Shown here piece after piece: positions 53,022 through 64,000 of a stretch of 64,000 nucleotides of DNA. The notes under the pieces are model-generated. The model was not told the origin of the DNA. It made no database searches and saw nothing but the letters and a program-made list of their open reading frames with translations. The translations under genes and the position numbers were made by a program. How positions within the stretch are numbered: position 1 is the stretch's first letter; each line of letters begins with the position of its first letter. The stretch comes from Candidatus Latescibacterota bacterium. GTDB taxonomy: Bacteria; Latescibacterota; UBA2968; GCA-2709665. The DNA lies in the NCBI GenBank assembly GCA_965219455.1, contig OZ244744.1, positions 1,984,001 to 2,048,000 of the forward strand, written 5' to 3'.

Positions 53022-54002
53022 ATGGAGAAACCGATGAAGTATGGGCGCGTTGAAGGGATTGACACGCCGGTTTCCCGGCTCGTTCAGGGCACGTTGATGC
53101 TGTCGACGGACGACCTGGAGGCGAACATCGGGTTTCTTGACGGGATCCTGGCGCTGGGTTGCAACAGTTTCGATACCGCGCAGATATATGGAAACGGACA
53201 GGCGGAGCGTACGCTGGGTGCCTGGATGGATCGACGCGGCAATCGAAGCGACGTATTCATTCTGAGCAAGGGCGGCCATCCCAATGCGGACCGCCGTCGG
53301 GTGACGGTGTTCGACGTGGCGTCCGATCTGTTTGATTCCCTGGCTCGGCTCAGGACGGATTACATCGACCTCTACCTGCTTCATCGGGACGATCCGGAGT
53401 TGCCGGTGGGGCCGCTCGTGGAGGCGCTGAACGAGCACATGTCCGAAGGGCGCATCCGGGCGTTCGGCGGATCCAACTGGTCGGTGAAGCGCATCGATGA
53501 AGCGAATTTATATGCGCAGAATCACGGCCTGAGGCCCTTCGTGGCCAGCAGTCCGAATTTCAGCCTCGCCGTGCGCATGAAAGAGATCTGGGAGGGCTGT
53601 CTGAGTATCTCCGGTCCTCGAGGGGCCGAGGAACGCGCCTGGTACCGGAAATCGCAGATGCCCGTGTTTTCCTGGTCCAGCCTGGCGCAGGGCTTTTTCT
53701 CCGGACTCCTTTCGCGCGGGAACGTCACGGAGATGGCGAATGAAATGACGGAAGGGTGCGCACAGGTCTACGGATACGAGGAGAACTTCAAGCGGCTGGA
53801 CCGCGCGGTCGAACTTGCCAACGAGCGAGGAAAGACCGTGGCGCAGGTCGCGCTCGCGTTTCTCTTCAACCAGCCTCTGAACGTCTTCACTGTGTCGGGC
53901 TGCAGGTCGGTCGAGGAAAGCCGTCTGAACCAGGAGGCCATGGAAATCCGGCTTTCGCCGGAGGAACTGGACTGGCTGGATCTGCGACGGGACAGCCGAT
54001 GA
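53022..54002 (+). CDS. Aldo/keto reductase
   Basis: FDTAQIYG, SKGG, DYIDLYLLHRD, GGSNW, WSSLAQG. Confidence 0.92.
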   Translation: MEKPMKYGRVEGIDTPVSRLVQGTLMLSTDDLEANIGFLDGILALGCNSFDTAQIYGNGQAERTLGAWMDRRGNRSDVFILSKGGHPNADRRRVTVFDVASDLFDSLARLRTDYIDLYLLHRDDPELPVGPLVEALNEHMSEGRIRAFGGSNWSVKRIDEANLYAQNHGLRPFVASSPNFSLAVRMKEIWEGCLSISGPRGAEERAWYRKSQMPVFSWSSLAQGFFSGLLSRGNVTEMANEMTEGCAQVYGYEENFKRLDRAVELANERGKTVAQVALAFLFNQPLNVFTVSGCRSVEESRLNQEAMEIRLSPEELDWLDLRRDSR

Positions 54003-54157
54003 CGGATAACGTGCAACCGGAGATGGATCTATTCGTCTAAATCCTCAGGATCGGTTTCGTGTCGAAAAACGGGCAGGGTATCCGAGGATCCCGAACCGGT
54101 TTTCCAGGAAATATCCGGCCGAACTGCAAAAAAGCGTCTCCTGCGGCGCTTTGGGCT

Positions 54158-54187
54158 TGACACAAATAGGCAATAGGGCTAAATATT
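54158..54187 (+). promoter_or_regulatory. Possible sigma70 promoter of the REC-GDH/kinase pair
   Basis: Perfect TTGACA followed 17 nt later by a weak -10 (TAAATAT). Confidence 0.35.
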
Positions 54188-54242
54188 CGATGTATCATGG
54201 TCGGACCTCAATCACGCATGGATTTGCGCGGGCAATGGAACG

Positions 54243-55892
54243 ATGCCAGGGACAAATTTGAAAACGTTGTTGATTGAAGACAACCCACTGCACACGCGGC
54301 TGATCCGAGAACTGCTCGCCGAGTCAAAGAGCCCGGAATTCGAGGTGGATGCGGCGGATACGCTCACGGAAGGGCTGAACCGGCTTTCAGCGGACGATCA
54401 CGAGTTGCTGCTACTGGACCTGGTGCTCCCCGACAGCGAGGACCTGGACACCTACTACCGCGTGCGCGCCGCATATCCGGACCTGACGGTTGTGATCCTT
54501 TCCAGCATGAAGGATATCAAACTGGCGGCCCGTGCCGTCGAAGCGGGGGCGCAGGATTATCTGGTCAAGTCCCAATTGAACGGCCCCCTTCTGGTACGGT
54601 CGATCCGATACGCCGTAGAACGCAGCCGGGCACTGCACGCCGAATGGGAGTCGCCGATGTTCCGGCTGGCGCAGCAACAGTTTCTGAAGGCCGCCCACCT
54701 GATGGAACTGGACGACAACATCCGGCAGCGGCTTTTGTTTCCCCAGCGTACCCACATGGTCACCTTTCCGTTCCGGCGCGACGAGCACGAGTACGTGGAA
54801 ACGGTCTCGGGTTATCGGATCCAGCATCTGTTGACGATGGGACCCACCAAGGGCGGCGTGCGTTACCATCACGACGTGAACCTGGGCGAGGTGACCGCCC
54901 TGGCGATGTGGATGACCTGGAAGTGCGCCCTGATGAACCTGCCGTTTGGCGGCGCCAAAGGGGGCGTGAGGATTGATCCGACCGTACTCTCACGCTCCGA
55001 ACTGCAGCGCCTGACGCGTCGCTATACGTCGGAGATCATCGACGTTATCGGACCACAGAAGGATATCCCTGCGCCGGATATGGGCACCGACGAACACGTG
55101 ATGGCCTGGATGATGGACACATACAGCCACCAGATGGGACATACCGTGCCGGCGGTCGTGACCGGCAAACCGGTGGTGCTGGGCGGCTCCGAAGGACGCC
55201 GCGAGGCGACGGGACGGGGGTTGGTGTATCTGGTGGAGGAGGCGGCCAAACATATCGGGATGGACCTGCGCCGTGCGACCGCCGTCGTCCAGGGGTTTGG
55301 AAACGTGGGAAGCAATGCGGCGAGATTCCTGGAAGCCTGCGGGGTCAAACTCGTGGGCGTCAGTGACGTGACCACCGGCATTTACAACCCCGATGGTCTT
55401 TCCTTGGATTCGCTGCTGCAACACACGGAAGAAAACCGGTTTCTGGAAGGTTACGCCGGCGGAGATGCCGTGAGCAATCAGGAATTGCTCGAGATACCGT
55501 GCGACATTCTAGTACCCGCAGCCCTGCAGAATCAGATCACAGCGGACAATGCCGAACGGATCACGTGCAGGATCCTGGCCGAAGGCGCCAACGGCCCCAC
55601 CACACTAGAGGCGGACGAGATTCTGCAGGAAAAGGGGACCTTTATCCTGCCGGACGTGCTCGGCAATGCCGGAGGGGTTACGGTTTCCTATTTCGAATGG
55701 GTGCAGGATACGCAGAATTACATGTGGACGCTGGAGGAGATCAACGATAAACTCCGGAAGATTCTGCTCCACGCGTTCCAACGGACCATGCGAAGATCGC
55801 AACGGGACGGGCTGGATATCCGTACGGCGGCGCTCATTGAAGGGATCCACCGTGTAACGCAGGCGAAACTCCTGAGGGGTATCTTCCCATAG
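54243..55892 (+). CDS. Response-regulator receiver fused to Glu/Leu/Phe/Val (glutamate) dehydrogenase
   Basis: REC: LLIEDN, LLLLDLVLPD, ILSS, DYLVK. GDH: GPTKGGVRY, MTWKCAL, GGAKGG, DIPAPD, VTGKP, QGFGNVG, EGANGP, NAGGVTVSYFEW. Confidence 0.92.
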   Translation: MPGTNLKTLLIEDNPLHTRLIRELLAESKSPEFEVDAADTLTEGLNRLSADDHELLLLDLVLPDSEDLDTYYRVRAAYPDLTVVILSSMKDIKLAARAVEAGAQDYLVKSQLNGPLLVRSIRYAVERSRALHAEWESPMFRLAQQQFLKAAHLMELDDNIRQRLLFPQRTHMVTFPFRRDEHEYVETVSGYRIQHLLTMGPTKGGVRYHHDVNLGEVTALAMWMTWKCALMNLPFGGAKGGVRIDPTVLSRSELQRLTRRYTSEIIDVIGPQKDIPAPDMGTDEHVMAWMMDTYSHQMGHTVPAVVTGKPVVLGGSEGRREATGRGLVYLVEEAAKHIGMDLRRATAVVQGFGNVGSNAARFLEACGVKLVGVSDVTTGIYNPDGLSLDSLLQHTEENRFLEGYAGGDAVSNQELLEIPCDILVPAALQNQITADNAERITCRILAEGANGPTTLEADEILQEKGTFILPDVLGNAGGVTVSYFEWVQDTQNYMWTLEEINDKLRKILLHAFQRTMRRSQRDGLDIRTAALIEGIHRVTQAKLLRGIFP

Positions 55893-56055
55893 TGTCCCGT
55901 CCCAGAAATATGTTACCATTCATCCGCCGATTCATCCCGTCTCGCTACGTTGCCTTCGCTCGCCGACCTTGGGCAGGGCGCCTTGCTCAGGCGCCTTGCC
56001 AGCCGGGCGACTCGGCGGCCGAATTTCGGCAATCTATTTCTGGGACAGAACAATA
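55890..56055 (+). mobile_element. MITE-like element, copy B
   Basis: TAGTGTCCCGTCCCAGAAATA ... TATTTCTGGGACAGAACAATA inverted ends; 59/60 match of one end to 18362-18421. Confidence 0.72.
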
Positions 56056-56067
56056 GGAAGGTCTGAA

Positions 56068-59000
56068 ATGGACGATTATGCCGACCCGCGTCTGGTGCGG
56101 CTGGCCGCGATAGCCGCGCAAACGGCGAATCTTATCGTTGTAATGCTGTCCCTCCTGGTTCTCTGCGGATGGCTGGTCAGCGCACCCGTCGCCGAATGGA
56201 TGTCTCTATTGACGGCGGGGATGTTCGTACTCACGGGCGTGGCGCTGTGGCTGCTGCGCAGCGGGAGGTCGTCCGACAGGCGGCAGTTCCTGGGGAAGGC
56301 AATCGGCGCCGTGGTGGTGGTCTTCGCGTTTCTGGAAATGGTTGGTGCGGGCCCCGTATTTATCGGTTTCGAGGCCGGCGCGGGGCATATGTTGCGCGAT
56401 GAGGCGTGTAATTTCGCCCTGATCGGTCTGGCCTTGTTTCTCTGGCGATTTAAAATCAGAGGAAGCGCATGGCCGGCGCTGACGTGTCTGTCTGTCGCTT
56501 CAATCGTATCGATCGGTTATGCAATTGGACATTTTTACCTGACGCTCTCGCCCCGGGAAGTGACATGGGATATTCAGATGAGCGCCGTCACAACGCTCAC
56601 ATTCGGCCTGCTGTGCATTGGCCTGTTTTTATCCCGACCGGACCTGGAACCAACGACAACCATCGTCAGCTCGACCGCTGGCGGTTCGATGGCGCGCCGG
56701 TTGCTGCCTCCCGCTTTCCTGATTCCGCTGGCTCTGGGCTGGCTCTGGCCTCACAGCGAAGTGATATTGGGCTTCGAATCCGGAATGTCTCTGTTCTCCC
56801 TGGGGGTGATCGTAGCGCTGAACATTCTGATCTGGTGGTACGCCCGGTCGCTCGCGTATCTGGACTCCGAACGGAAGCGCTCAGAACAGGCATTGCGTGA
56901 GAGCGAAGCCCGGCTCAAGCTGGCAATGGAAGCCGCCCACATGGGGAGTTGGGATTCCAACCTGCTGACCGGAGAACTGGTCTGGTCGGATCTGGTGGCG
57001 CCGTTGTTCGGCCTTAAACCGGAAGTGTTCGAAGGTACGCGCGAGGCGTTCTATGGACTCGTGCACCCCGAAGACCGGGCGATGGTTCGCAGTGCGGTGC
57101 GGCGCACGATCAGGGAAGGGGTGGATTTCGAGGTCGAGCACCGGGTTGTATGGCCGGACGGGACGGTTCGGTGGCTGGGAAATAAAGGCCGCGTTTTCGG
57201 CGACGGCGCGGGGCAGTATGTACATATGATTGGTACGGTGCGGGATATCACGCTACGCAAGCGAACCGAGATACAGCTGCAGGAAAAGAACCGGCAACTC
57301 GAGAAAACCGCGGCTGCCGAGCGTGAAGCGAACGAAGCGCTGAAGAAGAGCTCGGTCGCCCTGGAGCGTTCAAGGGCGGAGCTGCAGAAAGCAAAAGACG
57401 CCGCGGAAAAGGCGAATCGCGCAAAAAGCGAGTTTCTGGCCAATATGAGCCACGAGATCCGTACGCCGATGAATGGCATCATGGGCATGACGGAGCTTCT
57501 GGGCAACACGGAGTTGACGCCTCAACAGCGCGAGTATCTCAAGTTGAGCAGGCAGTCTTCGGAGGCCTTACTGGCACTTCTGAACGATATTCTCGATTTC
57601 TCCAAACTCGAGGTGGACCGGCTGGAACTGGAGGCGATCGGCTTCGACCTCCGCGATACGCTGGGGGACACCGTTCAGACCCTTGCGGTTAAAGCCACAC
57701 AGAAGGGGCTGGAACTGGCGTGCCATATTGCACCGGAGGTTCCGGACAGGCTGGTGGGGGACCCGGGCCGTTTGCGGCAGATCGTGATCAACCTGGTGGA
57801 CAACGCCATAAAGTTCACGGAGAAAGGCGACGTGCTGGTTGACGTAAAGGTGGACGCACGGGAGGAAGAGAAGCTCTGTCTGAGGTTCTTTGTTCGGGAT
57901 ACCGGCATCGGGATCGCACCCGAAGATCGGCGGATCATTTTCGACTCTTTCAGCCAGGTAGACTCTTCTACTTCCCGGCGGTTTGGAGGAACGGGGCTGG
58001 GCCTGGCGATTTCATCCCAACTGGCCACGATGATGGGTGGACGCATGTGGGTGGAGAGCGCGCATGACAAAGGGAGCACGTTTTATTTCACAGCGCTCTT
58101 CGAGGCCCAACCCCAGCCGGCGAAGCGGTCGGCGGCCGATCTCCAGTCCCTGGTGGGTCTCCGGGCGCTGGTGGTGGATAACAACCGTACAAACCGGTTT
58201 ATCTTCGAGGAGATGCTGGGAACCTGGGGTATGAAAATTGACGTGGCGGATTCGGGGCCGGCCGCGCTCGAGACACTGCGGGAGGCTGGCGAGGCGGATT
58301 CGCCGTTCCACCTTTTCTTACTGGACGCAATGATGCCCGGTATGGACGGGTTCGCGCTGGCCGAGCGAATACGCCGGGATCCGGATGTGAAAAACGTACC
58401 GATTCTGATACTTTCGTCCGCGGGAAGAACACGCGACGCGGTGCGATGTGACGCCTTGGGGCTTGCGCGATGTCTGACAAAGCCGGTCAAGCAGTCCGAC
58501 CTGCTCGATGCCGCGCTGGCAGCCCTGAACGTAAGCGTTATCGAGCCCGTAGATATCGCAAAGATTGCGGAACCGTTGCCGCCCGCCCATAGGCGCCGCG
58601 TCCTGTTGGCAGAGGACGGCATGGTCAACCAGAAGGTGATTGTGGACCTGCTCGGGCCGCGCGGGCACCAGGTTACCGCCGTCAACAACGGCAAGGAAGT
58701 ACTCGCGGCGCTGGAGAACGACACATTCGACCTGATCCTGATGGATATTCAGATGCCGGAGATGGATGGGTTGGAGGCAACACGGATTATCAGGGAACGG
58801 GAAACGTCGACGGGGGCGCATATTCGAATTGCGGCGATGACGGCCCACGTGATGCAGGGAGACCGAGAGCGGTGTCTGGAACAGGGGATGGACGACTACC
58901 TTTCCAAGCCGATCCGGGCGGGACATCTCTTCGATGTTGTGGAGAATAACGGCTCATCCGGCAGCGTATCGCAGGCGGAGCCCGGCGATGATGCTGTCGC

Positions 59001-59340
59001 TCTGGATTGGCAGGGAGCCCTGGAACAGGTTGGCGGCAACGAGGCGCTTCTGGGTGAACTGGCCGGCCTGTTTGTTACGGAGTACGCGAAGCACCTTGAA
59101 GAAATGAAACGGGCGATCGCAAACGGTGATGGATCGCGGCTGCGGCGCGCGGCCCACACACTGAAGGGGTCGGCGGCTATTTTCCTTGCCGATCCGACCG
59201 TCGAGGCGGCGTTGCGGCTGGAAACCATGGCGCGCGAAGGGGATCTTGAAGACGCGAATGAAGCGCTCGCCGCGCTGGAACGGGCAGCGGACGGGTTGCT
59301 GCCGGCGCTGAAAGAAAAAGCTGCCGCGGTTGTTGCGTAG
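56068..59340 (+). CDS. Membrane hybrid sensor histidine kinase (TM-PAS-HisKA-HATPase-REC-REC-Hpt)
   Basis: Multi-TM N-terminus; PAS VHPEDR..WPDG; FLANMSHEIRTPMNG; NAIKFT, DTGIG, GGTGLGL; two receivers; AAHTLKGS. Confidence 0.95.
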   Translation: MDDYADPRLVRLAAIAAQTANLIVVMLSLLVLCGWLVSAPVAEWMSLLTAGMFVLTGVALWLLRSGRSSDRRQFLGKAIGAVVVVFAFLEMVGAGPVFIGFEAGAGHMLRDEACNFALIGLALFLWRFKIRGSAWPALTCLSVASIVSIGYAIGHFYLTLSPREVTWDIQMSAVTTLTFGLLCIGLFLSRPDLEPTTTIVSSTAGGSMARRLLPPAFLIPLALGWLWPHSEVILGFESGMSLFSLGVIVALNILIWWYARSLAYLDSERKRSEQALRESEARLKLAMEAAHMGSWDSNLLTGELVWSDLVAPLFGLKPEVFEGTREAFYGLVHPEDRAMVRSAVRRTIREGVDFEVEHRVVWPDGTVRWLGNKGRVFGDGAGQYVHMIGTVRDITLRKRTEIQLQEKNRQLEKTAAAEREANEALKKSSVALERSRAELQKAKDAAEKANRAKSEFLANMSHEIRTPMNGIMGMTELLGNTELTPQQREYLKLSRQSSEALLALLNDILDFSKLEVDRLELEAIGFDLRDTLGDTVQTLAVKATQKGLELACHIAPEVPDRLVGDPGRLRQIVINLVDNAIKFTEKGDVLVDVKVDAREEEKLCLRFFVRDTGIGIAPEDRRIIFDSFSQVDSSTSRRFGGTGLGLAISSQLATMMGGRMWVESAHDKGSTFYFTALFEAQPQPAKRSAADLQSLVGLRALVVDNNRTNRFIFEEMLGTWGMKIDVADSGPAALETLREAGEADSPFHLFLLDAMMPGMDGFALAERIRRDPDVKNVPILILSSAGRTRDAVRCDALGLARCLTKPVKQSDLLDAALAALNVSVIEPVDIAKIAEPLPPAHRRRVLLAEDGMVNQKVIVDLLGPRGHQVTAVNNGKEVLAALENDTFDLILMDIQMPEMDGLEATRIIRERETSTGAHIRIAAMTAHVMQGDRERCLEQGMDDYLSKPIRAGHLFDVVENNGSSGSVSQAEPGDDAVALDWQGALEQVGGNEALLGELAGLFVTEYAKHLEEMKRAIANGDGSRLRRAAHTLKGSAAIFLADPTVEAALRLETMAREGDLEDANEALAALERAADGLLPALKEKAAAVVA

Positions 59341-59351
59341 TGGATCGAATG

Positions 59352-59536
59352 CGGAGTCCGCCGGTTGCATTGATGACGAGAAAGCAGATTGGTTTTAACT
59401 AAAGATGATGCCCCCTTTGGGGGCATCTTTTGGTATATTGGGAATGCGAACACTACCTTTGACGTGTCCCCAACCATTCACGGATCCTCAGAATTGGTGC
59501 GCATTTACGTAAAGGTTCCATAACACCGAATTTATG
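59352..59536 (+). repeat. Dispersed intergenic repeat, copy 1
   Basis: CGGAG..GCATTGATGA..GCAGATTGGTTTTAA..GATGCCCCCTTTGGGGGCAT..TTGGTATATTGGGAAT..GATCCTCAGA..CGTAAAGGTTC; shared with copies 2 and 3. Confidence 0.8.
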
Positions 59537-59696
59537 AGTGGATTCAGCGCATCTGGAAAATATCTCGTGCTGCTTAATTCAACATTCCAGATCGCAAGAA
59601 ATATGGAGGTCTCCCTCTGTGCTTCTTTTTTCGCGAATCCATCATCTTCCACCCCCGCACAATGGCTTATCGAACCTTAGAGGAAGCGTGTGTGAA

Positions 59697-60000
59697 GGTG
59701 GGGCAGACATTCCTGTCTGCCATTCTCATTGTCCTTCTGCCGCAATACAACCAGAAGAAATGCTTGCGCCGCCGTTATGGAGCCAATACTCGTCGTCGCG
59801 CTTGAGCCACATCTCAAGCACTTCGTGGAAGGTACGGCGTGTGGCCACGGGCGATCGCATCAGCCAGGCGAAAGGTGATCCAATAGATAGTGTCGTCCTT
59901 TTCCAATGGGGGAGACAGCTGCGAGTCGTGGCGTGCCAGTACACAGGATTCCGAGGTTCCGGTTTGAAGTATATGAGCAGACAGGAATGTCTGCTCCACC
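59697..60000 (-). pseudogene. Decayed RAYT (REP-associated tyrosine transposase) N-terminal fragment between inverted REPs
   Basis: Frameshifted LPHW / TIYWITFRLADAI; flanked by GGTGG(G/A)GCAGACATTCCTGTCTGC in inverted orientation at 59697-59721 and 59975-60000. Confidence 0.7.
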
Positions 60001-60087
60001 TTTTCAAGCCTACCCTTCCTGCCAATAAAGTGTGAGGCAACTTTCCCTCCGAGTTTGATTTAGAATATTGGGCCGAGCGGAGAATCT

Positions 60088-60315
60088 ATGAAGAAGGCTA
60101 ATGCGGAAGAGCTTCGTCCTGAATATTGCCGTGAAGATCTCGGTCCCGGCGTCCGTGGAAAGTATCTGGAATCTTTCCGACCGGGGACCAACCTGGTTTT
60201 GCTGCAACCTGACGTCGCGAAGGCATTTCCAACCGAGGAAGCCGTAAATGATGCGCTTCGGTCGTTTATGAACGCGGATGATGGTCCGGTTGACGCCCGG
60301 ACGGGCGGCGAATGA
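60088..60315 (+). CDS. BrnA-like antitoxin, no adjacent BrnT
   Basis: ELRPEY..GVRGKY..TNLVLLQPDVAKAFPTEEAVNDALR. Confidence 0.65.
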   Translation: MKKANAEELRPEYCREDLGPGVRGKYLESFRPGTNLVLLQPDVAKAFPTEEAVNDALRSFMNADDGPVDARTGGE

Positions 60316-60374
60316 AATTTCGCTATGCTGGGTGAATCCGAGAAGTCAATTTAAACTTGATCCGGAGGACTGTG

Positions 60375-60593
60375 ATGACTCAACTTCTCGAGAAAGCGAT
60401 TTCGGAAATCAAGAAGCTTTCCAATGATGAGCAAGACGCGATTGCGGCCGTCCTGATGGCGGAGTTGGAGTCAGAACGCCAGTGGGAACGTGCATTTGAC
60501 TCGACGGCAGAGCAGTTGTCAGGTCTTGCAAATGAGGCTCTCGATGAATACCGAACAGGCAAGACTGAACCGTTCGAATCGCACGGCTCATGA
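60375..60593 (+). CDS. Putative antitoxin
   Basis: MTQLLEKAISEIKKLSNDEQDAIA..W..AF..LANEAL.EY..GKT; GGAGG RBS; overlaps the following toxin start. Confidence 0.65.
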   Translation: MTQLLEKAISEIKKLSNDEQDAIAAVLMAELESERQWERAFDSTAEQLSGLANEALDEYRTGKTEPFESHGS

Positions 60594-60721
60594 TATCCCG
60601 GACAACCCGTCGTTTTCGTGACGCGCTACTCGATCTTCCCCGACCCGTCCAGGTTCAGGCTGCCGCTGCACGGTCAACTAACAGGATAACTCAATTTTCC
60701 GGAGCCCACCGGATGCATTGA
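60590..60721 (+). pseudogene. Truncated RelE/ParE-like toxin
   Basis: ATGA overlap with antitoxin; MISRTTRRFRDALLDLPRPVQVQA then runs into repeat copy 2 and stops after 43 aa. Confidence 0.6.
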
Positions 60722-60806
60722 TGACACCATAGAGCAGATTGGTTTTAAGTAAGTATGATGCCCCCTTTGGGGGCATTTCTTGGTATATTGGGAATACGAA
60801 CATTAC
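60684..60806 (+). repeat. Dispersed intergenic repeat, copy 2 (right part missing)
   Basis: Close match to 59352-59456; left GGATAA shared with copy 3. Confidence 0.8.
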
Positions 60807-60949
60807 AGGATGATTCGATCCTGAACATTGGTATATCCAGAGACCTGGAACACACTGTCACAACGGCTCGGCAAACCCGAAATTCGGCACGAACGGAAGA
60901 AGCGCATATACGCGCAGAAACAAAGAATGTCCTCCCCCCAGTTTTCTTC

Positions 60950-60979
60950 TTGTATAACATCATTTATGATGTATATTCT
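60950..60979 (+). promoter_or_regulatory. Promoter/operator of the HigBA-like module
   Basis: TTGTAT..TATATT with internal palindrome ACATCA-TTTA-TGATGT just before ATG 60982. Confidence 0.5.
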
Positions 60980-60981
60980 AC

Positions 60982-61371
60982 ATGAACCGAAAATGGCGCA
61001 TCCTCTATTACATAGCTGAAAACGGATACTGCCCCGTTCAAGAGTTCATTGATAGTCGCTCAGATCGAGACCAGGCCAAGACGTTCAGTTGGCTTGCTCA
61101 ATTGGAAATAGACGGACCGAGCCTACCCAGGCCATATACGGATCTCTTGGACAGCGGAATCCACGAACTCAGACTAACGCTTTCTGGCGACCAGGTGCGC
61201 ATCCTCTACTTTTTCTGTTTCAGAGATTTCATTGTATTGACCCACGCTTTTGTGAAGCGTACCCGGCGCGTACCGGTCGCTGAAATTCACCTCGCCAAGA
61301 AGTATCGTGAGGATTTCCTTTCTCGATTTGACGAGGGTAGTTTAAAGGAGGAACTGGATGAGGAGCTTTAG
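60982..61371 (+). CDS. RelE/HigB (Gp49-like) toxin
   Basis: CPVQEFI..L..GPSL..PY..GIHELR..RILYF..VLTHAFVKRT..EI. Confidence 0.88.
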   Translation: MNRKWRILYYIAENGYCPVQEFIDSRSDRDQAKTFSWLAQLEIDGPSLPRPYTDLLDSGIHELRLTLSGDQVRILYFFCFRDFIVLTHAFVKRTRRVPVAEIHLAKKYREDFLSRFDEGSLKEELDEEL

Positions 61372-61648
61372 ACGTCATCTGGACGAAAAGCTCAAAGATG
61401 AGCGATTCAGGCGACTGTATGACGAAGAGCGACAGCTTACCGAGCTGTCGTTGAAGATACACCAAATGCGAGCGCAGCTGGGTCTTTCGCAGCAGGAGGT
61501 TGCCAGAAGAGCGAAGGTCACACAACAGCAATTGTCAAAGGTTGAGAATGGGATCAATTGCAATTTGACAACGTTTTTGAAGGTATGCCATGCTCTGGAT
61601 CTGACGGTAGAGTTAGAACGACCCAACGCCAGACAGCAGGTGAGTTGA
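61358..61648 (+). CDS. XRE HTH antitoxin (HigA-like)
   Basis: GLSQQEVARRAKVTQQQLSKVENG; overlaps toxin 3' end. Confidence 0.88.
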   Translation: MRSFRRHLDEKLKDERFRRLYDEERQLTELSLKIHQMRAQLGLSQQEVARRAKVTQQQLSKVENGINCNLTTFLKVCHALDLTVELERPNARQQVS

Positions 61649-61801
61649 TTCTGTGTGGAAGTGAAGCCGCCTACGCCGGTTCATTAGCTCTCTGAAACTC
61701 TTAGATGCCAGGTGAGGAGACGTCCTCGCGCCGTATTTCCAGAAGAAGATATCGATATTTTGCAGGGCGAGCCCTGGACCTGGATTCCTGGAGGTTTGGA
61801 C

Positions 61802-62017
61802 ATGAGAAATGAATTCACCGCGATGATCGAACACGACGGCGAATGGATCATTGCCTTTTGTCCTGAGATCCCCGGCGCCAATGGACAGGGAAAGAACAGG
61901 GACGATGCACTTGCGAGCTTACGAGAAGCGATATCGCTCATCCTGGAGGATCGGCGGGAGGACGGACTTCGCGCTGTGCCTGCAGAGGCGGAACGTGAAA
62001 TTGTCGTGATCGAATGA
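61802..62017 (+). CDS. HicB-family antitoxin
   Basis: FTAMIE..WIIAFCPEIPGANGQG..LREAI.LILE; GGAGG RBS. Confidence 0.85.
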   Translation: MRNEFTAMIEHDGEWIIAFCPEIPGANGQGKNRDDALASLREAISLILEDRREDGLRAVPAEAEREIVVIE

Positions 62018-62024
62018 AACGACA

Positions 62025-62089
62025 CCCTTCGGCAGCCTTTCGACCCTTCGACAGGCTCAGGGACCACAAGCTCAAGACAATGCTCAGGG
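62025..62089 (+). repeat. Nested CTTCGACA.GCTCAG REP-like repeat, copy 1
   Basis: Near-identical core to 63557-63623. Confidence 0.75.
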
Positions 62090-62231
62090 TGCAGTCTCAA
62101 ACGCCGAGCTAAGTGTACGAAGACCGTGAGACGTCAAAGGAAACCGGACAAAGGCAATGACATTACAATGGAGGATCTGAATGGCTGGCTGGCTAGAATT
62201 GACATTCCCGGTTGAAGCTGGCAAGGGATCT

Positions 62232-62765
62232 GTGATTGTTATCGATGACGAACGTGTCCATTTGCTCGCAGATCCCCTCCGGCGGCGCATCCTCGAAACT
62301 CTTGGCGAGGGGAAATCCGTGGAGGAGATTTCATCGATATTGGGTATGACCGATACCCGGGTCCTCCGTCACCTGCAACGACTCGCGGAATCAGATGTCG
62401 TACATCTTCAAGAAACGGGCAGCGATCCCAGGGCCTGGCGATGCATCCCTGTGGCGGGCAAGATTCGAATCCGGGACACACTTGATGAGACGGCCAAAAC
62501 CTCCCTGCCTGTACCTTCGGAGGTTGCCTGTCAGTTTAATCAGGCGTTTCGCGAAAGTGCGGACGGCATATTCGGTCCGAATTTCCAAAGCTCTGTCAAC
62601 CATAACCGGGCTCGACTCTCGGAAGAACAGGCGGCCGAATTCAACCGTCGGCTCCTGGACCTGATAGAGGAGTACTTTCCACCTGGCAGAGGCGATCCCA
62701 CCGGAATCAAGTATGGCTTTTTCGGCGTGCTGACCCCGATTGATCTTCCTCCTATCGAGTCGTGA
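62232..62765 (+). CDS. ArsR-like winged-helix protein
   Basis: LADPLRRRILE..SVEEIS..RHLQRL; C-terminal LSEEQAAEF..L. Confidence 0.75.
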   Translation: MIVIDDERVHLLADPLRRRILETLGEGKSVEEISSILGMTDTRVLRHLQRLAESDVVHLQETGSDPRAWRCIPVAGKIRIRDTLDETAKTSLPVPSEVACQFNQAFRESADGIFGPNFQSSVNHNRARLSEEQAAEFNRRLLDLIEEYFPPGRGDPTGIKYGFFGVLTPIDLPPIES

Positions 62766-62916
62766 CAGAAAGGTATTTGCACCCATCTTGCGTGCGAATG
62801 TCCCACATCCTTTCACAACACGGTTACTTCTGTGACCGCGGAGTTCACCCCCAACCCGGCGCGGTTCGGGGGCACTGAACCGTTACGCGCCATTGCAGTT
62901 CGACGGAGATCAAGAA

Positions 62917-63441
62917 ATGACAACCTTCTATCTCATTCGGCATGGAGAACCCAATTGGGATTTAGCTGCCGGAGAGGATCTCAAAGGCGCCCAGGTGGGG
63001 TGGGCAGCCCATATCGTTCCGTTGACCGAGACTGGCATCAGCCAGATTGAGAATGCTTCAAGAACCCTGTCAACTGAAGATCCTGAGCTCATTATTTCGT
63101 CGCCAATGTCTCGGTCGCTGCAGTCGGCTGCCATACTCAGCCGCATACTCGAACTTCCACTTCGAGTCGAGTTTGATCTGCACGAATGGATTTGTGGATG
63201 GCGCGATTCGCTTGAGCTTGTCGGCGAAACCGTGGCAGAAATGCAAAAGCTGGGAGGCGAGTGGCCTCCGGGTGAGACAAGAGATTGGGAGCCGATGTCC
63301 AGTGTGCGCGACCGTGTCAATCGTGTTTTAGGACAATACCGGACCTTCCATCGTGTTGTCGTTGCGTGTCATGAAACCGTTATTCTCTCGCTCACCGGAA
63401 AGAGGATGGGGTTTGCTGAATTTGTAAGGATAGAAAAGTAG
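62917..63441 (+). CDS. Histidine phosphatase family protein
   Basis: LIRHG, SSPMSRSLQSA, DLHEW, VACH. Confidence 0.85.
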   Translation: MTTFYLIRHGEPNWDLAAGEDLKGAQVGWAAHIVPLTETGISQIENASRTLSTEDPELIISSPMSRSLQSAAILSRILELPLRVEFDLHEWICGWRDSLELVGETVAEMQKLGGEWPPGETRDWEPMSSVRDRVNRVLGQYRTFHRVVVACHETVILSLTGKRMGFAEFVRIEK

Positions 63442-63556
63442 CAGCTTTGTAATCCGAAACCGGGGATCACCATGCCACCGGCTGGCGCATCCAGTGACAC
63501 AACCGGTTGTGCTGCTGTTCGAACGCCTCGGCTATTTCAAATAAAAATAGCACTTG

Positions 63557-63623
63557 CCCTTCGGCCGCCCTTCGACCCTTCGACAGGCTCTGGGACCACA
63601 AGCTCAGCGTGTAAGCTCAACGG
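63557..63623 (+). repeat. Nested REP-like repeat, copy 2
   Basis: CCCTTCGGC.GCC.TTCGACCCTTCGACAGGCTC.GGGACCACAAGCTCA. Confidence 0.75.
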
Positions 63624-63678
63624 CCCCGCCCGGGGTACGCAAACCGGACGATGTCATACGCAAGTGGGTCGGGCATCG

Positions 63679-63881
63679 GGATAATCCGCATCTTCGGAGC
63701 CCGGTGGACGCATTGATTAACGAAATGTAGACAGGGTTTAGTTAGTGACGATGCCTCCGATAGGTGCATTTTTAAATATGTTCGGAATGCATGAATCTGG
63801 GAGTGATACGTTGCCGAACGTACGGAGATCCTCAGATTTGATGCCTATTGCCGTAAAGGTTCGGTAACATCGTGGTTATAG
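63679..63881 (+). repeat. Dispersed intergenic repeat, copy 3 (diverged, longest)
   Basis: GGATAA..CGGAGCCC..GCATTGAT..GATGCC..GCAT..GGAATGC..GATCCTCAGA..CGTAAAGGTTC..TAACA..TTAT. Confidence 0.65.
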
Positions 63882-63960
63882 GCCATCAGCTAAGACACAA
63901 AGGGGCGCAGGCCCCGTAACACAACCCATATTTTCGCATTCAAAGTCACAGAAAATGGAT

Positions 63961-64000
63961 ATGGCAAAACAGAAGATTTATTTGGATTCAACTGTTCCAA
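63961..64000 (+). CDS. Start of a probable PIN-domain (VapC-like) protein, cut by window edge
   Basis: MAKQKIYLDSTVP resembles the PIN N-terminal [IV]YLD motif; only 13 codons visible. Confidence 0.45.
   Translation, partial: MAKQKIYLDSTVP

Follow-up and report, generated by a model that had tools for sequence, protein, structure and literature searches.

The 64,000-nucleotide stretch of Candidatus Latescibacterota bacterium DNA analyzed here (GenBank assembly GCA_965219455.1, contig OZ244744.1, positions 1,984,001 to 2,048,000; hereafter the window) encodes a CheY-like phosphorylation receiver (REC) fused to a complete glutamate dehydrogenase (GDH). The next gene on the same strand encodes a membrane-bound hybrid histidine kinase with two receivers of its own and a histidine phosphotransfer (Hpt) domain. 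From this architecture, and from the conservation of the kinase beside the fused gene, we infer that REC-GDH is a response regulator with an enzymatic output. We consider it fairly probable that a His-Asp-His-Asp relay ends on Asp59 of the fused receiver and thereby switches GDH activity. An earlier note, made from the letters of this DNA alone, had proposed such a phosphorelay wired to GDH, and comparative evidence lends the proposal support: the phosphorylation residues are intact, the two genes lie 11-16 nt apart in related genomes, the kinase is linked to the fusion across loci, and one locus carries a free-standing Hpt gene between the two partners.

The open reading frame at 54243-55892 (+) yields a 549-residue protein, and the frame stays open across the REC/GDH junction. 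Response_reg (PF00072) matches residues 9-110 with 57.8 bits (curated cut-off 30.2), and all of the phosphorylation residues claimed in the earlier note are present, namely the acid pocket E12 and D13 in IEDN 11-14, the phospho-acceptor D59 in LLDL 57-60, S87 in ILSS 85-88, and K109 in YLVK 106-109. We take these to match CheY positions 12/13, 57, 87, and 109, as the numbering is nearly identical. Across an alignment of 23 fused homologues, E12, D59, and K109 are invariant, and D13 and S/T87 are missing only in loci L010, L011, and L012. The claim of an in-frame, complete GDH with three glutamate-type lysines held as well. ELFV_dehydrog_N (PF02812, residues 167-296, 177.6 bits) and ELFV_dehydrog (PF00208, residues 314-546, 267.5 bits) both exceed their cut-offs, and residues 136-549 pair, with no notable gap, with positions 3-416 of Thermotoga maritima GDH (1b26, 416 residues; E 2.8e-140). 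Because this alignment runs end to end, the protein amounts to a complete GDH with an additional N-terminal domain of about 135 residues. The GDH motifs are GPTKGG (200-205), TWK (225-227), GGAKGG (236-241), PAPDMG (276-281), the dinucleotide motif GFGNVG (351-356), and VTVSYFEW (479-486). Within them, K203, K227, K239, D279, and S482 do not vary among 104 aligned GDHs, fused and unfused; their catalytic or glutamate-binding roles are presumably those of the equivalent residues in Clostridium symbiosum GDH. The GDH part misses the cut-offs of two archaeal NCBIfam equivalogs (GdhB_Halo, 496.4 versus 620 bits; GdhA_Arch, 482.6 versus 750 bits), which bars those named orthologues and not the assignment as a GDH. 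Sequence comparison thus confirms an intact CheY-like receiver joined to a complete member of the hexameric Glu/Leu/Phe/Val dehydrogenase family.

In a confident AlphaFold2 model, receiver helix α5 (residues 114-133) is followed by a short break and then by the first GDH helix (residues 138-154). Across the fused family, REC and GDH meet in a conserved EW(D/E)SPMF motif, of which E134 and W135 are invariant in the 23 fused proteins. A Foldseek search with the model returned solved GDHs at target TM-scores of 0.92-0.97, and the best 50 matches covered roughly 402-421 alignment columns in chains of 392-427 residues, as compared with 414 residues in the GDH part. Since the matches listed are GDH chains of about 410 residues, we conclude that they include no solved structure spanning both REC and GDH. 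That the fusion is an artefact of assembly or gene calling, with two genes read through as one, has a negligible probability, and we found no point in its favor. The open frame and the conserved junction motif speak against it, and the best 120 matches listed from a collection of 5.8 billion proteins all share the same three Pfam domains over 539-566 residues at 68-90% identity, so that the guess that such fusions exist in databases was correct. Finally, the full-length frame recurs in 14/14 other genomes of the same genus, by which the artefact explanation is refuted.

Pfam searches and a hydrophobicity scan agree with the earlier reading of the downstream gene as a membrane PAS kinase with two receivers and an Hpt. 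The PAS_3, HisKA, HATPase_c, Hpt, and both Response_reg matches all lie above the Pfam cut-offs (Table 1). Together, the two proteins contain every residue of a His-Asp-His-Asp relay: H462, D753, D893, and H1030 of the kinase and D59 of REC-GDH. Both receiver aspartates are kept in 15/15 aligned kinases that adjoin a REC-GDH gene, and the Hpt histidine is present in 13 of these 15 aligned segments, the remaining two having their Hpt outside the aligned segment. The start codon is most likely ATG 56068, because AGGAAGG stands just upstream of it and it is conserved in same-genus genomes; TTG 55969, the start of the listed open reading frame, was dropped in favor of this conserved position. No Pfam family matches the first 301 residues, even at E ≤ 1, and this membrane region is a candidate for an uncharacterized membrane sensor domain. 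It is about 35% identical to the corresponding part of the adjacent kinases in L002, L004, L083, L084, L116, and L117. The NCBIfam families nearest to the kinase are BarA, TorS, and ArcB, but it falls far short of their cut-offs: BarA (491.2 versus 890 bits), TorS (464.7 versus 676.5 bits), and ArcB (357.7 versus 838 bits).

On this basis, the two genes would constitute a dedicated phosphorelay of several steps that acts on an enzyme rather than on a promoter. The membrane PAS kinase would autophosphorylate on the H-box histidine, pass the phosphoryl group to one of its two receivers and then to the Hpt histidine, which would hand it to D59 of the GDH-fused receiver. Phosphorylation of D59 would alter the α4-β5-α5 face of that receiver, and the changed packing of receiver against GDH, or of receiver against receiver, within the hexamer would switch GDH activity. 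Such a change could reach the enzyme because α5 runs into the first GDH helix after a break of only four residues. Whether the GDH step at the 2-oxoglutarate/glutamate node is open to carbon and nitrogen would then be decided post-translationally, by the relay. What the sequences show is the domain make-up, the intact residues, the conserved gene linkage, and the single origin of the fusion; from these we infer the phosphotransfer, an effect on GDH activity and its direction, and a signal sensed by the kinase.

Evidence for a functional pair also comes from other loci, where conservation of the two genes had been suggested as a check. A HisKA-HATPase-REC-REC hybrid kinase, with Hpt fused or separate, adjoins REC-GDH at 19 of the 23 fused loci with readable flanks and at 0/143 unfused GDH loci (68 and 75 in two scans), which, as the loci are related and not independent, describes a pattern and is not a statistical test. 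The 19 loci comprise the window and five same-genus genomes; L002, L004, L005, L007 (Halomonas stenophila), L009 (a Microbulbifer metagenome-assembled genome, MAG), and L014 (Lujinxingia vulgaris); L082, L083, and L084; and the metagenome loci L116, L117, L119, and L120. The pairing therefore extends across several phyla, with Planctomycetota, Gemmatimonadota, Halomonas, Microbulbifer, and Lujinxingia among the names on kinase-adjacent loci. According to record titles, Halomonas stenophila CECT 7744 and Lujinxingia vulgaris TMQ2 are cultured carriers of the gene pair. Five loci on contigs too short to judge adjacency were left out (L003, L006, L008, L012, and L118). At unfused loci the best kinase match reached 121 bits; in genera other than that of the window, the adjacent kinases scored 392-580 bits.

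The catalytic and receiver core of the adjacent kinases is kept, and the sensor part varies. The window kinase combines the membrane region with PAS; the same membrane region occurs without PAS in L002, L004, L082, and L083; the Halomonas kinase (L007) has GAF and PAS; and the Microbulbifer (L009) and Lujinxingia (L014) kinases have CHASE. A kept core with varied sensors is what one would expect of a module that has a single output and to which different inputs can be attached. Locus L009 is particularly telling: its kinase ends after the second receiver, and a separate gene for a 118-residue Hpt protein (43.9 bits against Pfam Hpt; 38% identical to the window Hpt) overlaps the kinase stop and precedes the REC-GDH gene. 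The gene order at this locus thus reads His-Asp, His, Asp. At L005 (103-9644, a Pirellulales MAG), the kinase contains two further receivers and stands behind a chemosensory cluster, the order being MCP, a CheA-like kinase (Hpt-HATPase-CheW-REC), CheB, the four-receiver kinase with Hpt, and then REC-GDH; the relay onto GDH may there take its input from chemosensory signaling.

Similarity searches and a tree of kinase cores indicate that the kinase is likely, though not proven, to be co-inherited with REC-GDH. When five other genomes were searched with the window kinase core, the GDH-adjacent kinase ranked first in four and second in the fifth (517 versus 548 bits). For the tree, we used 33 cores, 15 adjacent and 18 non-adjacent, after dropping locus duplicates and segments shorter than 350 residues. 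Thirteen adjacent kinases fall into one group and the two CHASE kinases into another, with 0/18 non-adjacent kinases inside either.

The GDH part allows the history of the fusion to be traced. In a maximum-likelihood tree of 91 rows (23 fused and 68 unfused, with the window's duplicate locus L001 left out), all fused rows fall into one clade of 25, with a support of 99 in the Shimodaira-Hasegawa-like approximate likelihood-ratio test (SH-aLRT), whose sister is unfused Myxococcota GDH. This clade mixes Planctomycetota, Pseudomonadota, Gemmatimonadota, and Myxococcota and also includes two unfused genes, L013 (8001-9254) and L015 (8001-9251). A single phylum-mixed clade with two nested unfused genes shows one origin of the fusion, followed by horizontal spread and occasional loss. 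Named sources among the 120 database matches listed are Gimesia, including Gimesia maris, other Planctomycetes, Latescibacteria, Gemmatimonadota, Amphritea, and Pontibacterium. Within a phylum survey that sampled 151 genomes, full-length REC-GDH occurs in all 15 genomes of the window's genus, its own included, and in 5 genomes of another family; the four other genomes of the window's own family have only an unfused GDH of about 50% identity. A search with residues 1-160 of REC-GDH returned 111 representative proteins at E ≤ 1e-30, and 14 of the 150 listed matches span the REC-GDH junction, a count that is not the size of the family, as the others are longer multi-receiver proteins. The closest receivers outside the family (P0123-P0129) are 43-46% identical and belong to longer proteins (about 590-1280 residues) that carry them as tandem pairs, which places the GDH receiver in a broad DLxLPDS-type subfamily.

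These comparisons bear on the possibility that the receiver is a structural or oligomerization domain, no longer phosphorylated or phosphorylated by small-molecule donors only, with the kinase signaling elsewhere and its adjacency reflecting co-transfer or co-expression alone. Such a possibility is consistent with a Planctomycetota subclade, L010 (8001-9644), L011 (8004-9647), and L012 (2339-3982), in which D13 is replaced by Gly or Ser and S/T87 by Ile, and with the absence of an adjacent kinase at L010 and L011 as well as at L085 and L086. The receivers of the subclade nevertheless keep D59 and K109, as do 23/23 fused proteins, and outside this one clade E12/D13 and S/T87 are always present; the clade looks like either a decay of the same control or a receiver that may work independently of a kinase. 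Kinase adjacency moreover tracks the receiver, and the separate Hpt gene of L009 lies precisely between kinase and REC-GDH. The two nested unfused genes, L013 and L015, have an intact GDH and retain the EWD(S/T)PMF junction right behind a short new N-terminus, and they show no receiver, no receiver-like sequence upstream, and no kinase nearby. As these two lost the receiver and kept an intact GDH, the domain is better described as a regulatory add-on than as a structural element, and we regard a purely structural receiver as unlikely.

Profile searches of the genome, a single 5.84-Mb contig, found the REC-GDH gene as the only PF00208 match and the kinase Hpt as the only PF01627 match; the one GDH and the one Hpt detected in this genome are thus encoded by neighboring genes. 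The same searches gave no large NAD-GDH (PF05088), 21 receiver matches, and 9 HisKA matches. The earlier note had remarked that no DNA-binding regulator is nearby, and this was borne out: apart from the three receivers in these two genes, no REC match lies between genome positions 1,676,372 and 2,565,781, none of the other receiver and HisKA matches comes within about 360 kb of the locus, and the nearest helix-turn-helix (HTH) gene, at 62181-62765, is of the ArsR type and has no receiver. Genes for glutamate synthase and glutamine synthetase lie elsewhere in the genome, so that GDH is not the sole route to glutamate. With one GDH found and both of these enzymes present, the proposed relay would gate the GDH step in particular. 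That the only GDH of the genome bears a receiver and is paired with a kinase across phyla suggests that the signal acts on the enzyme directly and not on gene expression.

Several observations weigh against a relay that ends on GDH, in addition to the relatedness of the loci mentioned above. No kinase adjoins REC-GDH at four fused loci whose flanks are readable for 5 kb or more in both directions (L010, L011, L085, and L086); the receivers of L010 and L011 are degenerate, and those of L085 and L086 are intact even though the kinase is not adjacent. In the kinase-core tree, the group of 13 adjacent kinases has an SH-aLRT support of 88%, and the CHASE kinases of L009 and L014 stand outside it, in a polytomy. 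Hybrid kinases form a large paralogous family, and genomes that lack the pair also hold copies that are 40-51% identical, so similarity alone does not settle orthology of the kinase. The AlphaFold2 model, computed on a 104-row alignment, carries no confident orientation of receiver relative to GDH, and the GDH part alone could carry its predicted template modeling score (pTM) of 0.77 (predicted local distance difference test, pLDDT, 90.6); on the 23-row fused alignment the model was poor (pLDDT 66.8, with the GDH N-domain below 50). Lastly, the genome contains about nine further receiver genes that lie more than 5 kb from any PF00512 kinase, and in principle each of these could be an acceptor for the Hpt.

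The last of these points could also be accommodated if REC-GDH takes part in the relay without being its output. The receiver would then compete for phosphate or serve as a sink for it, and the GDH body would be an input that senses metabolites, such that glutamate, 2-oxoglutarate, or the NAD(P)H state tunes how much phosphate reaches a response regulator encoded elsewhere. The two receivers within the kinase itself would suit this arrangement, and precedents exist for both halves of it: in Bacillus subtilis, GDH has a second, moonlighting role in regulating GltC, and some chemotaxis systems use single-domain receivers as phosphate sinks. Yet none of the Pfam-scanned loci has a DNA-binding response regulator conserved beside the pair, the catalytic residues of the GDH are invariant, and, with no second GDH found in the genome, the protein would be required to work as an enzyme as well. 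We therefore give a sink a low probability. Because the kinase tracks the receiver across loci, this explanation and that of a structural receiver are both weakened, and a relay that would act on GDH through D59 remains our preferred reading.

Enzyme-output response regulators are well established and include CheB, the REC-GGDEF proteins PleD and WspR, the REC-HD-GYP protein RpfG, and REC-PP2C proteins. REC-GDH resembles them in placing an N-terminal CheY-like receiver on a catalytic domain with no need for DNA binding, but its output is a hexameric oxidoreductase of central metabolism, not a signaling enzyme. CheB is controlled by occlusion and PleD by oligomerization; control of REC-GDH could follow either model. 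Like BarA, TorS, and ArcB, the kinase has the order HisKA-HATPase-REC-Hpt and would relay to a separate receiver through His-Asp-His-Asp steps, but it has two receivers instead of one, and its terminal acceptor would be an enzyme rather than a transcription factor. Post-translational control at the 2-oxoglutarate/glutamate node is likewise known, from GarA/OdhI with PknG in Actinobacteria and from GltAB-GudB and RocG-GltC in Bacillus. These systems act through separate partners, either an FHA protein phosphorylated on Thr or binding between enzymes or between enzyme and regulator, whereas REC-GDH carries the phospho-acceptor domain within the GDH chain and would use His-Asp chemistry. The GltAB-GudB complex 7mfm was among both the sequence and the fold matches of REC-GDH.

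Receivers on standard metabolic enzymes have been noted in bacterial censuses (Galperin 2018, PMC5847659), and Table 1 of the 2009 P2CS paper (PMC2716373) gives EC 1.4.1.3, glutamate dehydrogenase, as "Probable" among the enzymes of two-component proteins. Both sources provide catalogue entries only, in which we found no information on phylogeny, function, conservation, or a partner kinase. Ordinary transcriptional control of a gdh gene is the subject of a 2026 paper on GrtK/GrtR (PMC12918730). Our full-text literature search found no paper on a receiver-GDH fusion, in line with the earlier guess that it is experimentally uncharacterized. The architecture is thus catalogued and enzyme-output regulators are known, but the cross-phylum kinase-Hpt-REC-GDH module with exchangeable sensors appears to be undescribed.

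Spacing of the two genes was compared among five same-genus genomes. Stop codon and ATG are separated by 11-16 nt in three of the five (G051, G058, and G150) and by 175 nt in the window and in G125, the longer gap being due to an inserted structured repeat. The spacers of G051, G058, and G150 do not contain this repeat, which has 45 matches in the window's genome (the spacer copy counted) and whose full-length copies share 76-92% identity. It has terminal inverted ends GTCCCAGAAATA...TATTTCTGGGAC, and its computed folding energy is -73.4 kcal/mol (z -3.86). Metatranscriptome contigs from many copies of the repeat pile up on it, to a summed depth of up to 2322 in X3. A promoter scan of 53900-59700 gave no sigma-70-like promoter. 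The terminator-like hairpin behind the kinase likely ends the transcription unit, which is only a hint, as the region holds five such sites against a shuffle mean of 5.0. In the sponge metatranscriptome run X1, contigs are identical to 54802-55610 (three pieces) and 56572-56783; no X1 contig bridges the REC-GDH gene and the kinase, in a library that may contain DNA and whose uncovered parts are uninformative.

Table 1. Coordinates of the REC-GDH gene, the adjacent kinase gene, and associated elements within the window.
Feature	Position	Strand	Basis and remarks
REC domain of REC-GDH, residues 1-133	54243..54641	+	PF00072; E12/D13, D59, S87, K109
Four-residue break, residues 134-137	54642..54653	+	Between REC helix α5 and first GDH helix
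Complete GDH part, residues 136-549 and stop	54648..55892	+	Alignment to 1b26; PF02812, PF00208
Dispersed repeat copy in spacer	55893..56052	.	About 150 nt; genome copies; not part of the signaling module
Hybrid sensor histidine kinase, 1090 residues from ATG	56068..59340	+	Pfam domains, start conservation
Membrane region of kinase, about 6-7 hydrophobic segments in first 260 residues	56068..56970	+	Kyte-Doolittle scan
PAS_3 of kinase	56977..57240	+	PF08447, 70.4 bits
HisKA of kinase, H-box SHEIRTP, H462 codon 57451-57453	57421..57612	+	PF00512
HATPase_c of kinase	57757..58095	+	PF02518, 100.6 bits
First receiver of kinase, D753 codon 58324-58326	58168..58512	+	Pfam Response_reg
Second receiver of kinase, D893 codon 58744-58746	58600..58941	+	Pfam Response_reg
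Hpt of kinase, HTLKGS motif, H1030 codon 59155-59157	59056..59298	+	PF01627
Terminator-like hairpin, 9-bp stem, 7 G-C pairs, T-rich tail	59407..59437	+	Consensus scan; 67 nt past kinase stop

Beyond the module, the kinase terminator is followed at once by a fall in G+C content (from about 0.59-0.61 to 0.50-0.55), and the stretch 59400-64000 may be an acquired island. It contains a Gp49/HigB-like toxin gene (60982-61371), with which a small open reading frame (61358-61648) overlaps, the ArsR-type HTH gene, and a histidine phosphatase gene (62893-63441), along with a 165-residue open reading frame (59538-60035) that has no Pfam match even at E ≤ 1. At two of the kinase-less fused loci, L011 (3501-7843) and L085 (8581-10590), CMAS (cyclopropane-fatty-acyl-phospholipid synthase-like) genes stand just upstream of REC-GDH, and the upstream stretch of L011 also holds a DUF1295 gene. 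Locus L053 (7992-10272, a Gaiellaceae MAG) had been a candidate fusion, with query residues 6-549 matched; it proved to have a NarL-type response regulator gene (REC and GerE) directly upstream of a separate GDH gene and was counted as unfused. This arrangement could be the transcriptional counterpart of the fused one.

Two-component systems have mostly been studied as switches of transcription, motility, and second messengers. The hypothesis of a relay onto GDH is directly testable, because cultured strains carry the pair (Halomonas stenophila, Lujinxingia vulgaris) and Gimesia maris carries the fusion. The sensor variants found across phyla offer a natural set for finding the signals that control GDH, and the module may serve engineering as a portable enzyme switch with exchangeable sensors.

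If the relay does end on GDH, His-Asp signaling would switch flux at the carbon/nitrogen junction within seconds. A more far-reaching and tentative idea, which we hold to be possible yet rather doubtful, is that the pair, at times joined by a free-standing Hpt gene, spreads horizontally as a cassette in which the sensors can be exchanged and the sole output is the on/off state of GDH. It would then be a phosphorelay without any transcriptional arm, fed in some carriers by a chemotaxis-like MCP-CheA-CheB pathway, and the only Hpt relay of this organism would exist solely to gate its only GDH. Such a cassette would represent the first case of His-Asp signaling acting directly on a central carbon/nitrogen enzyme.

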